Shown one piece after another: positions 1 to 3,537 of a DNA stretch of 11,407 nt (position 1 is its first letter; each line of letters opens with the position of its first letter). The stretch is taken from the IMG/VR virus record IMGVR_UViG_3300005541_000153; one strand, written 5' to 3'. Below the pieces are notes generated by a model. That model was not told where the DNA came from and ran no database searches. It saw nothing but the letters and a program-made list of their open reading frames with translations. This DNA is from a virus. The translations under genes and the position numbers were made by a program.

Positions 1-2503
1 TCTCGATGCCGAGGACTTCGGCGTCGTAGATCCGCATGCCGTTCTCGGGGAACGTCGTGCCCGTGCGCTCTTCCGTCTTGGACGGCTTCGCACCCAGGAT
101 GATGTCACGCAGGATCGGCGTGTGGTTGGAGTAGAACTCCTCGATGCCGAGCTTCTGCACCGCGCTGCGGATTCGGGACCGCATGGCGTCGCACAGGAAC
201 TTGACGTAGTTGTCGACGTTGAACCAGCTGTCGCTGTCGCCCTCGAAGTTGACGCGGTACGACACCTTCACGTTGATCCTGCAGAAGTCCTTGGTCTCGA
301 CCTGGACGATGTCAGTGACCATGTTGTTGGCGACCTGCAGGTACACCGTGCGGAGGATGTTGTCCGTCGACTTGGGCTTGCCCGTCGAGAGCGAGAGAAC
401 CTGGGGGCTCTCGTCGTACTCGAACATGAAGGTGCCCGGCCCCTGGATGACCCGGCGGGTGTCGCTCTTGCTGACGAGCAGCATCGCGAAGCCGGTCCAG
501 AGGGTGACGCCGACGGCGCCGTCGTACTTGGTGTTGAGGATGACCGAGCGCGGTGCGGTGAACTTCGCCTTGCGGTCGAAGGCATCGCCCGGCAGGGACT
601 TGCTCGCTGCTTTGATCAGGATGCGGCCGCGGCCGACGTCCGGGGTGGCCGCTGCTGCGACCGCGCCATACGCCTCGTTCTCCGTATCGCTGCGGACGTA
701 GGCGCTGTTGAGGTAGGCTGCGTTGGCGCCGCCTGCCCCCATGAAGTCCACGTCCTCGACACCGAGGCGAGCTGCGTTGACCGCCAGGGCCTCTTCGTTG
801 CCCGGGTAGAGCAGGCCGACGAGGTCGAGGGGCAGTGCACGCTGGAGGATAACCTGGGTGCGGGGATCCGGGAGGAAGATCTTCGGACCTGACACCAGGC
901 TCGCTTCGCCGGTGAGGCGGTTGAGCACGTAGCGGGCTTCGCCCGGCGGGATCGCAATCCCGTAGTGGACGTCCTGCTCACCGTACTTGATGATGGCGTG
1001 CTCCTCACGGGGGAAGTACACCGGCTGCTCGTTGCCCGTGATGAAGAGCTCCTGGCCCGCGGTCCGCTTGGTGGTGCCGTCGGCCTCGGTGTAGTCCGCG
1101 ATGACGCGGATGTGGATGCCGCTCGTCGGGGTGAGCTCCTGGGCGCGGAACTTCTTCGCCTTCACCTTGTCCGGGTTGGACTTGATGGGAGCCTCGACGA
1201 ACTTCTCGGTCGGGCGGGGGAACACGACGTCCGGGCCGATGACGTAGCGCTTGTTGCCGTTCTGATCGAGCAGCAAGCAGTACTCGAGGCGCTCGAGCGA
1301 GCAGGCCTCACGGACCATGCGCTCTTCGCCGCTCACCTTCTCGGGAACGACTTCGATGCCTGTCGGCGGGATGTAGAAGGAGACCTCGGTGCCTCGGACC
1401 ACGAAGAGCTTGCCCATCGTGAGGTCATCGGCCGTCGGGATGTCGCTGGAGGCGCGGCCCGATGCTTCGATGCTGCGGTGCGGGCGCTTCGTGGCCTCGT
1501 GCCCTTCGCTCCCAGCGGAGCCAGCGGATCCGGTGTCACCCTGCGTCTTGACGACTGCCTTGCCGTAGTTGGCCTTCGCGGCCTCCTCGTCGTAGACCCG
1601 GCAGAGCAGGTACTCGTTCGACTTCAGCGAGTGGCCCTGGACCACCTTCGCCATCTGGCCAGGCCACAGCGGGAACGACTGCGGTCCCGCGATGTTGACC
1701 TTCTTGCCGACCCGGAGGTTCGGCGTGGAGAGCTTGCCCTGGCCCGTCGGGTGCTTGTCACCCTCGGCCGGGTTCTTCAGGACGATGTACCAGCCCTCGG
1801 GCGCTGTCTGGAACAGCTGGATGCCCTGGTCCCGTTGGACCGCCGAGAACCGCTTCGTCTTGAGGTCGAACTTGACGAGCTGGTCGGTGCCGGCCAGGCT
1901 CTGCTTGTTGGGACCGACGAAGACGTTGACTTCGCCCTTGGTCTCATCGCTGATGTATGCGAACTCGTTCGGGGCCAGGATCATGTCCTGGACTCGGCGA
2001 GCGCCGCGGAGGTCTTCTTCGCTCATTGCATCTCTCTTTTCTGTGGCCGGAGCCGTTGTGTGTCTGGACTCTACTTCTCGTTTCGGTTGCTTTACACTCG
2101 GTTTTGAAGTTGCCGGCGTCGCCGACGAAGTCTGCTTGGGAGGGTCACGGAGTTCCTGGAGACGGGCTGCCTCTTCGCCAGTGAGATCAGGTCCCCACTT
2201 GATGCCGCTGCGCTGCGGAGGGCGGGCTGTCTGCGATGATGACAGGGTGCCAGTGAGGGGACGGCGCTGCAACATCGATCGCGTGTCGCGGAGCTTCTCC
2301 TCCATGATCCGATCGACTGCGCTCTGCTCGTAGCCGAAGGCGTTGAGGTTCCCGTAGAACTCGTCGATGTCCTTGGCTCGTTTCTGCTGCACCGGGTCGC
2401 GCTCGTCGATGCTCCCCTTGCCCCCGCAGTACGGGCACTGTGCTCGGCTTCCCGGTGCGGACTGGTACCAGCCGCTGCCGCGGCACATCTTGCATTTCGT
2501 CAT
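1..2503 (-). CDS. Partial CDS: the C-terminal end runs off the left edge, so more than 834 aa are visible. The N-terminus has two DnaJ-type zinc-finger motifs (CKMCRGSG, CPYCGGKG), then a Ser/Thr/Pro/Lys/Gln-rich low-complexity linker, then major-vault-protein (MVP)-like repeats and an SPFH/band-7-like shoulder domain.
   Basis: The minus-strand frame is open without a stop from the ATG at 2503..2501 to position 2. It is absent from the ORF track because it has no in-window stop. The ATG overlaps the upstream stop (tcat at 2500..2503, i.e. ATGA). The body shows at least five repeats containing (V/I)xGPxxF/YxP, for example VNVFVGPNKQSL, NIAGPQSFPLWPGQ, VVRGTEVSFYIPPTG, VIGPDVVFPRPTE, LVSGPKIFLPDPRTQ and VIQGPGTFMFEYDESPQVLSLSTGKPK. 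These resemble MVP repeats such as VEVGPKTYI, DPFPLYPGE, EGPGTYIPRKEV and QFTVLSLSAGRPK. Residues encoded near 1..400 read RINVKVSYRVNFEGD...FLCDAMRSRIRSAVQKLGIEEFYSNHTPILRDIILG, resembling the MVP shoulder/SPFH region (LAYNWHFEVND...[35 protein letters not shown]). GC3 is high over the zinc-finger and MVP parts. An internal ATG at 2026..2024, preceded by the purine-rich GAAAAGAGAGA, is an alternative start. Confidence 0.8.
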   Translation of the reverse strand, partial: MTKCKMCRGSGWYQSAPGSRAQCPYCGGKGSIDERDPVQQKRAKDIDEFYGNLNAFGYEQSAVDRIMEEKLRDTRSMLQRRPLTGTLSSSQTARPPQRSGIKWGPDLTGEEAARLQELRDPPKQTSSATPATSKPSVKQPKREVESRHTTAPATEKRDAMSEEDLRGARRVQDMILAPNEFAYISDETKGEVNVFVGPNKQSLAGTDQLVKFDLKTKRFSAVQRDQGIQLFQTAPEGWYIVLKNPAEGDKHPTGQGKLSTPNLRVGKKVNIAGPQSFPLWPGQMAKVVQGHSLKSNEYLLCRVYDEEAAKANYGKAVVKTQGDTGSAGSAGSEGHEATKRPHRSIEASGRASSDIPTADDLTMGKLFVVRGTEVSFYIPPTGIEVVPEKVSGEERMVREACSLERLEYCLLLDQNGNKRYVIGPDVVFPRPTEKFVEAPIKSNPDKVKAKKFRAQELTPTSGIHIRVIADYTEADGTTKRTAGQELFITGNEQPVYFPREEHAIIKYGEQDVHYGIAIPPGEARYVLNRLTGEASLVSGPKIFLPDPRTQVILQRALPLDLVGLLYPGNEEALAVNAARLGVEDVDFMGAGGANAAYLNSAYVRSDTENEAYGAVAAAATPDVGRGRILIKAASKSLPGDAFDRKAKFTAPRSVILNTKYDGAVGVTLWTGFAMLLVSKSDTRRVIQGPGTFMFEYDESPQVLSLSTGKPKSTDNILRTVYLQVANNMVTDIVQVETKDFCRINVKVSYRVNFEGDSDSWFNVDNYVKFLCDAMRSRIRSAVQKLGIEEFYSNHTPILRDIILGAKPSKTEERTGTTFPENGMRIYDAEVLGIE

Positions 2504-3537
2504 GGCTGCATCTCCTGTGCAGGCTTGAGTTCGATGCCCAGCCACTCGGCGACGGCATCGCGGTAGTGGGTGTTCTCACCCTGGATACGCTGAGGCTTGT
2601 CGTATGTCGCCAGCAACGCCTCAGTGGCACGGGTCCTGTCTCCACGCCGAGCGTAGACATACGCCAGCTGCCAGCCGAAGTCAGCGACATGGTCCCGTGT
2701 GGCGACCTGCTCCTTGATGTAGGCCTCTGCCCTGTTGATGTCGTTGGTGCCCAGGAGTTGGGTCCCGGCCCGGAGCGCCGCGCGGTCTGCCCACTTGGGG
2801 CGCTTGGCCTCCTTAACAGACATGTCAAAGTACACGAAGGCCTCTTCGAACATGCACCGCGACATCATCTCGTCGCCGAGGTAGTAGTGGAGGACCTCGG
2901 GCTCCTCTTCGAGCCCACCGTTGGCCTCCCAGCGCTTCAGCACCGTGAGGTTGCGGTCACTACCGTTCTCCCGGTTGCGAGCGCCCTGCGACAGGTGGGT
3001 GACACGTAGGTAGTCCACCATGACCTCGGGCAGGTGACCCGCTTCGCGGTGCAGGTACTCATGGATGGGTCGCTTCCACACCCAACCGTCGTCCTTGTGG
3101 GTGAAGAACTCCCGGGTGAAGGTCTGGCAGCACACTGTCCTGTCTTCGTTCCAGGTGTAGTCGATCCACATCCGCAGGTTCAGGCCCGGGTGCCCGTCGT
3201 CTCGGTACTGTGTCGCCTTCTCGATCGTCTTGGGCACCTGGTCCCAGTGGTCGATGGTGCAGTCAGCATCGAGCCACAGCCGCCAGGAGCACGTCGCCAG
3301 GTCGTAGGAGTGGTTGCGAGCCTCAGCGAAAGATCGGATGACACCGTCCTCGTGCATCAGCTCTGGCATCGATCTGATGCTGTCAGCACCCGCCCGGAGT
3401 GCAGCGACGACCGAGTCGTCTGTCGAGCCAGTGTCAACCATGACGATCTCACCGACGTATGGGCGAGCTGCCTTGATGAGGGGCACCAAGAACTTCTGGT
3501 CGTTGCGGTTGATGAGGCACAATGACAGGTCGATCAT
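2500..3537 (-). CDS. Family-2 (GT-A fold) glycosyltransferase with a C-terminal TPR-like helical-repeat region.
   Basis: 345-aa ORF. The N-terminus reads SLCLINRN...EIVMVDTGSTDDS, the GT2 nucleotide-binding signature. A DxD motif is present (WLDADCTI). The C-terminus (AEAYIKEQ...WQLAYVYARRGDRTRATEALLATY) is TPR-like. Its stop overlaps the start of the MVP-like gene (ATGA). Confidence 0.8.
   Translation of the reverse strand: MIDLSLCLINRNDQKFLVPLIKAARPYVGEIVMVDTGSTDDSVVAALRAGADSIRSMPELMHEDGVIRSFAEARNHSYDLATCSWRLWLDADCTIDHWDQVPKTIEKATQYRDDGHPGLNLRMWIDYTWNEDRTVCCQTFTREFFTHKDDGWVWKRPIHEYLHREAGHLPEVMVDYLRVTHLSQGARNRENGSDRNLTVLKRWEANGGLEEEPEVLHYYLGDEMMSRCMFEEAFVYFDMSVKEAKRPKWADRAALRAGTQLLGTNDINRAEAYIKEQVATRDHVADFGWQLAYVYARRGDRTRATEALLATYDKPQRIQGENTHYRDAVAEWLGIELKPAQEMQP

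Follow-up and report, generated by a model that had tools for sequence, protein, structure and literature searches.

SunS, a glycocin S-glycosyltransferase encoded by the Bacillus SPbeta prophage, and ThuS are two-domain enzymes in which a GT-A catalytic domain is combined with a helical, tetratricopeptide repeat (TPR)-like domain. GmaR of Listeria monocytogenes has TPRs directly after its glycosyltransferase domain; it acts both as flagellin O-GlcNAc transferase and as anti-repressor of MogR, and a role in binding the protein substrate has been proposed for its TPRs (PMC9638930). Both kinds of enzyme resemble the product of a glycosyltransferase gene (hereafter GT) at positions 2500-3537 of a viral sequence of 11,407 nucleotides (IMG/VR record IMGVR_UViG_3300005541_000153), the whole of which is referred to here as the window. 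The gene lies directly upstream of an open reading frame (ORF) for a major vault protein (MVP)-like product, and an initial annotation of the sequence had suggested that the two are co-expressed and that the enzyme might glycosylate the vault-like shell protein, or a host or phage target. The evidence leans towards a soluble protein glycosyltransferase of the SunS/GmaR kind, encoded by a dispensable accessory gene that is co-expressed with the MVP gene.

The gene, and the domains and motifs of its product, are laid out as follows:

2500-3537, minus strand: GT2-TPR glycosyltransferase gene, 345 amino acids, ATG at 3537-3535 and TGA at 2502-2500 (ORF, Pfam, PHROG, AlphaFold)
2995-3537, minus strand: GT-A catalytic domain, residues 1-181
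3412-3438, minus strand: VDTGSTDDS nucleotide-sugar binding motif, residues 34-42 (sequence; VDTGS kept in the family)
3262-3270, minus strand: DXD metal-binding motif, D90-A-D92 (family alignment; aligned to the DAD of GmaR)
2539-2955, minus strand: TPR-like domain, residues 195-333, with helix pairs 213-243, 247-280 and 285-311 and a capping helix 324-333

Assignment of the protein to glycosyltransferase family 2 (GT2), as in the initial annotation, is borne out. Pfam Glycos_transf_2 (PF00535) matches residues 6-114 at 27.0 bits (cut-off 23.3), the VDTGSTDDS and DAD motifs are both present, and the protein has the Rossmann-like GT-A fold of this family. The orthologs in two related loci, L091 and L251, likewise exceed the Pfam cut-off. 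PHROG 13126, labelled beta-1,4-glycosyltransferase and placed in the moron/host-takeover category, matches residues 8-308 (2e-12), and the codon composition is coding-like, with G+C contents at the three codon positions (GC1/2/3) of 0.63/0.41/0.82 in a window of ~62% GC. NCBIfam yielded a single weak match, glucosyl-3-phosphoglycerate synthase at 18 bits (cut-off 262), and PADLOC gave no match for GT, for the MVP gene or for the gene upstream of GT, g165. Plus-strand ORFs lying over GT (2440-3009, 3034-3525 and 3314-3562) were rejected as antisense shadows; a plus-strand ORF at 3308-3559, the sole one to pass the composition filter, has the coding pattern reversed (GC1 0.42, GC2 0.62).

Only nine proteins among 5.8 billion protein clusters match GT with E <1e-30, so the subfamily is rare. 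Within it, 34 columns are invariant in a nine-member alignment whose members go down to 31-38% identity, and D90 and D92 of the DXD motif, H159-E160, H181, D194-R195-N196 and the YYLxDE segment at 218-223 are kept in 9/9 members. Two database proteins, P0001 and P0002, lie very close to GT. P0002 is 93% identical over 75% of its length and carries a frameshift after ~residue 238, beyond which the TPR domain is replaced and the reading continues into the region of the adjoining gene; the variant is a natural pseudogene or else the result of faulty assembly. Residue 182 (codon 2992-2994) is Leu (CTG) in the window and Met in P0001 and P0002, so that P0001, though reported as 100% identical, is not the exact product of the window gene.

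The TPR-like C-terminus, also proposed initially, is real, though weak in the window sequence alone. Pfam TPR was not matched at E<=0.1 by the window protein by itself; the profile of the GT family, at its positions 212-307, aligns with consensus TPR proteins, with E 3e-23 for the whole and about 4e-5 to 2e-4 for the stronger individual stretches, and the GT ortholog of locus L013 matches Pfam TPR_2 at 29.9 bits (cut-off 27). An AlphaFold model built on the nine-member alignment (mean predicted local distance difference test, pLDDT, 85.5; predicted TM-score, pTM, 0.81) places a GT-A domain at residues 1-181 and, behind it, a helical part (195-333) of three pairs closed by a capping helix, and the pairs stack as the tandem antiparallel superhelix that defines TPRs. 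The model is made up solely of these GT-A and helical-repeat domains, and inspection of the translation by eye finds no hydrophobic membrane-spanning stretch.

The best structural matches to the protein are SunS and ThuS (PDB 7msn, 7msp, 7msk). The closest solved sequence relative of the catalytic domain is GmaR (PDB 22ao for the GT domain, and 7x9s), its sole sequence match in the PDB (E 1.6e-8 for the protein searched by itself and 2.7e-14 for the family profile), which shares with it the VDTGSTD, DAD and IHE motifs. Since these nearest characterised relatives glycosylate peptides or proteins, a protein acceptor is plausible for GT, in line with what had been supposed from the TPR module at the outset. 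GT would thus be an active, soluble, metal-dependent (DXD) and inverting GT2/GT-A enzyme, transferring from its sugar donor to a protein or peptide recruited by the three-repeat C-terminal TPR module, as in SunS/ThuS and GmaR. The acceptor would be some phage or host protein. The gene itself would be an accessory member of a long co-directional operon in an uncultured high-GC phage, co-transcribed and expressed with the downstream zinc-ribbon-MVP gene, and its position beside that gene would probably derive from the ancestor of the phage cluster, with repeated losses since.

The junction between the two genes, and the parts of the downstream ORF, are these:

2500-2503, minus strand: ATGA stop/start overlap between GT and the downstream ORF (TGA 2502-2500, ATG 2503-2501)
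2512-2516, minus strand: AGGAG, a putative Shine-Dalgarno-like site 8 nt upstream of ATG 2503, within the 3' end of GT
2399-2503, minus strand: DnaJ-type zinc ribbon (CKMCRGSG ... CPYCGGKG), residues 1-35 (Pfam, PHROG)
2027-2398, minus strand: Ser/Thr/Pro-rich linker, residues 36-159, in frame with the MVP body (translation)
1-2026, minus strand: MVP-like body from M160, cut by the left window edge (Pfam, PDB, starts of relatives)

The stop of GT had been described as overlapping the start of the MVP-like gene. The ATGA overlap is exact and on the same strand, but its ATG opens a zinc-ribbon extension, and the MVP starts of relatives align to M160 (codon 2026-2024), 159 codons or 477 nt past ATG 2503. 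Translational coupling had been read from the overlap. However, ATGA or GTGA overlaps of 4 nt occur at 7/19 junctions of the array, so the GT-MVP overlap reflects the normal style of this genome and is no special sign of partnership. The array comprises ~20 small, tightly packed, co-directional minus-strand genes up to 9125. Between the GT and MVP genes the minus strand has no terminator-like or promoter-like site; the only minus-strand terminator-like match falls inside GT (2848-2835), and the total number of matches is near the shuffle expectation.

The ORF downstream of GT runs without a stop for 834 codons until the window ends on the left, and its product resembles MVP: it matches Pfam MVP_shoulder (5.5e-29, 101 bits, cut-off 25) and Vault_3 (4.1e-9, 36.9 bits, cut-off 28.8), and its PDB sequence matches are major vault proteins only (1.8e-17). 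The zinc ribbon at its N-terminus is matched by PHROGs 4046 and 9961 and, under the cut-offs, by Pfam Anti-TRAP (9.7e-5) and DnaJ_CXXCXGXG (0.014). A second sequence, L090, is 100% identical over window positions 1-4091 and carries the gene on to its stop, giving an ORF of ~1058 amino acids whose C-terminal region abounds in Ala, Glu, Gln and Leu. Among relatives the zinc-ribbon extension is found in L010 only (9515-12691), where the same fused ORF encodes 1058 amino acids. The L010 extension is diverged (43% identical) and 24 codons longer (~183 amino acids) yet in frame, so the fusion is probably real. The last 105 nt of the linker (2027-2131) have a non-coding-like composition (GC3 0.43 vs 0.91 in the MVP body) and a purine-rich AGAGAGA stands before M160; an internal start yielding an unfused MVP is therefore possible, and judging from these signals both a long and a short form may be made. 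Directly after its MVP gene, L010 encodes a 640-residue flotillin-like protein (12770-14692; SPFH/Band_7, Pfam 1.2e-28) with a hydrophobic N-terminus; the window ends on the left before it reaches the corresponding position.

How closely is GT tied to the MVP gene in other phages? A scan of IMG/VR with the single GT protein returned nothing, and a profile scan then recovered relatives. Conservation of the pair, the expectation drawn from the window, holds in part. In five other metagenomic lineages (L003, L004, L006/7, L008 and L013/L250; GT identity 46-53%, MVP identity 66-75%) GT precedes MVP with 0-2 small genes in between, and the L003 gene that overlaps the stop of GT likewise encodes a zinc-ribbon protein. 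By contrast, in the closest relative, L010 (92% MVP amino acid identity, 89% nucleotide identity over window 1-2132), the homolog of gene g90 is followed directly by the zinc-ribbon-MVP gene, and both g165 and GT are absent. GT is also absent from L011, L012, L015-17 and L019, each with >=6.5 kb of upstream sequence. On the MVP tree the lineages with and without GT are interspersed, which implies repeated loss or gain. Beyond this clade, ~100 other phage MVP loci were retrieved, including those of LR756500 and LR756501 and many from contigs of 100-500 kb, and the GT profile had no match in any of them. The absence of GT from L010, from other clade members and from distant MVP loci marks it as a dispensable accessory gene, and its probable repeated loss would mean that the MVP-like protein needs no GT.

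More distant GT relatives (31-43% identity) were recovered without an MVP gene. The sequence around those in L091 and L251/252 shows none for 8 kb on either side, and for the relative in L005 no MVP was seen in the recovered sequence, which extends only 1.3 kb downstream of GT. L251/252 are low-GC jumbo contigs; a second MVP scan, led by a low-GC sequence and using two peptide patterns only, picked up none of the L251, L252 and L253 contigs. In the MVP alignment, no position is diagnostic for the presence or absence of GT in a genome. Genes g208, g97, g90b, GT and MVP form a collinear region across the phage cluster, so that the adjacency of GT and MVP can be inherited synteny instead of functional coupling; the genes just upstream of GT are not conserved among GT-bearing lineages. 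A literature search found no link between a glycosyltransferase and a phage or bacterial MVP.

Two observations on these relatives may be added. In the high-GC, phage-like L091, a gene for a calcineurin-like metallophosphatase precedes two paralogous GT2-TPR genes of 338 and 344 amino acids (7213-11146). Directly upstream of MVP in several relatives, with GT present or not, lies a gene of a ~95-residue protein family (motif YCLCIGRVASTTASGLT...VYLLTP) that has no Pfam match (L003 11445-11759, L004 9408-9710, L008 1741-2025, L012 8845-9129, L009 2214-2504).

Several points tell against a soluble protein glycosyltransferase whose gene is merely carried beside MVP. All lineages with >=46% GT identity (6/6) keep the gene 0-2 genes upstream of MVP while the flanks vary, and adjacency kept despite changing flanks is what a functional link would produce as well. 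TPR modules are able to mediate oligomerisation instead of substrate capture, and some GT-A enzymes with helical add-ons, such as TarS and RmlT, modify wall polymers; in our comparisons these two match GT much less well than the best matches do. A functional partnership of GT and MVP is therefore possible, and its most concrete form would be that GT glycosylates the downstream product, either the vault-like shell or the zinc ribbon with its Ser/Thr/Pro-rich extension, altering particle assembly, stability or recognition. The ATGA overlap within a common operon, the place of GT just upstream of MVP in six lineages across variable intervening genes, the architecture of protein glycosyltransferases, the abundance of Ser, Thr and Pro in the window extension and the zinc-ribbon gene at the GT stop in L003 are all consistent with it. 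We nevertheless regard it as unlikely. L010 has the zinc-ribbon-MVP fusion and its linker without GT; at least seven clade members with >=6.5 kb of upstream sequence lack GT; no MVP column tracks the presence of the enzyme; the GT relatives of L091 and L251/252 lack an MVP within 8 kb, and the two-pattern scan did not retrieve the L251/L252 contigs; and both 4-nt overlaps and collinearity are general in the region. That a SunS/GmaR-like enzyme acts on the shell or its extension and that the modification was lost in some lineages is an improbable combination.

A non-protein acceptor would turn GT towards the host: an envelope polymer or lipid-linked precursor, as in superinfection exclusion or receptor masking, or else a small molecule. 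Most GT2 enzymes use glycans or lipid carriers, and the secondary structural matches of GT (TarS, TarP, RmlT, WrtF and glucosyl-3-phosphoglycerate synthase), the sub-threshold NCBIfam match and the PHROG label with its moron/host-takeover category point the same way. But the translation shows no membrane-spanning stretch by eye, the model holds only GT-A and helical repeats, and the TPR module together with homology to GmaR and SunS favours a polypeptide, which leaves this option improbable. Modification of a ribosomal peptide in the manner of glycocins, with a small Cys-containing peptide encoded nearby as substrate, draws on SunS and ThuS being the top structural matches, on SunS being prophage-encoded, on the many small ORFs around GT and on a Cys4 segment that begins right at the GT stop. 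It is very unlikely, as neither an ABC transporter/peptidase nor a thiol-disulfide oxidoreductase was detected in the window (22 ORFs, Pfam), the Cys4 segment is no leader-core peptide but a zinc knuckle of DnaJ type (CXXCXGXG) joined to MVP, and identity to SunS is low. Nor is GT at all likely to be a degenerating or non-catalytic remnant that serves at most as a TPR scaffold. Its repeated loss in relatives and the frameshift that destroys the TPR domain of P0002 would fit such decay, yet the ORF is full-length with strong coding composition, the invariant columns (DXD, HE, H181 and DRN among them) persist down to 31-38% identity, and the AlphaFold model is confident. A soluble SunS/GmaR-like protein glycosyltransferase encoded by an accessory gene thus remains the reading that we prefer.

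We know of no function for phage-encoded vault proteins. A dedicated modifying enzyme, if there were one, would provide a biochemical handle on them, since the glycosylation state could mark assembly or targeting, and glycosylation of the shell protein or its N-terminal extension would give the first vault-type compartment of a prokaryote or virus to be decorated with glycans. The data point instead to an accessory gene that phages can do without, of a GT2-TPR type common in viruses. GT is then of value chiefly as a phage enzyme that may glycosylate proteins and for which one candidate acceptor is obvious, and the more interesting biology lies in its neighbour: the zinc-ribbon-MVP fusion, and the spread of MVP homologs in large phages. 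One pattern scan of IMG/VR gave 144 MVP relatives, many on contigs of 100-500 kb and including a 735-kb huge phage. MVP-like proteins are widespread in uncultured phages (L010-L089 and L280-L320 from IMG/VR, L001 and L002).

The window looks like phage DNA, and its relatives are confined to contigs of viral or metagenomic origin. At the thresholds used, Pfam assigned no family to any of 22 neighbouring ORFs, and scans of the window for tRNAs, Rfam families and repeats on either side of the GT cassette were negative. Megablast of the complete window against phage records gave no match, nor did tblastn with a 208-residue neighbour. The gene immediately upstream of GT is:

3541-4038, minus strand: g165, 165 amino acids as listed, with its stop 3 nt before the GT start

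The start of g165 is probably the GTG at 3954, which forms a GTGA overlap with the g90 stop and gives a product of 137 amino acids. This gene has no Pfam, PHROG or PADLOC match, and none of the fetched loci carries a homolog; like GT, g165 (3541-4038) and g72 (4220-4438) are present in the window and missing from L010. At the far end of the array the coding strand switches at 9039-9159, between a minus-strand gene (8499-9125) and a plus-strand gene (9109-9558). Two sigma-70-like matches, the only ones in the window, diverge there, with a match count near the chance expectation; the arrangement suggests a divergent promoter region at 9039-9159.

Set against the known systems, GT shares with SunS/ThuS the two-domain construction and differs in sequence, with 16-18% identity, and in length, with 345 residues against ~420 for SunS. 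The genes that accompany SunS/ThuS (for a precursor peptide, an ABC transporter/peptidase and thiol-disulfide oxidoreductases) were not detected in the window, whose 22 neighbouring ORFs are without a Pfam match. GmaR has the catalytic motifs in common with GT. However, it is a chromosomal bacterial regulator of 637 residues that continues into linker and anti-repressor domains (PMC9638930), whereas the window protein ends at residue 345 after a third TPR and a cap, and the window shows no flagellar context. An earlier preprint (10.1101/2023.11.10.566534) described MVP homologs encoded by phages, with different flanking genes in its two phages; the words 'glycosyl' and 'TPR' do not occur in its text. 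The MVPs of the huge phages LR756500 and LR756501 (L001, L002) are 42-44% identical to that of the window, and no GT relative lies within 8 kb of them. Outside viruses, actinobacterial GT2-TPR homologs (L173, L234) have ~355 residues and gene contexts that were judged uninformative from their ORF lists. There are viral counterparts as well. The BFVD contains ~25 GT2-TPR proteins that match GT structurally over its whole length (TMq 0.6-0.74, E down to 9e-20), among them A0A6J5QFS6, A0A8S5PY38, A0A384ZX68 of Dickeya phage JA29, and GT2 proteins of a pithovirus and other giant viruses. Their identity to GT is 12-21%; they are virus-encoded and built on the same two domains, and the GT2-TPR plan is, judging by these modelled structures, common among uncharacterised viral proteins.

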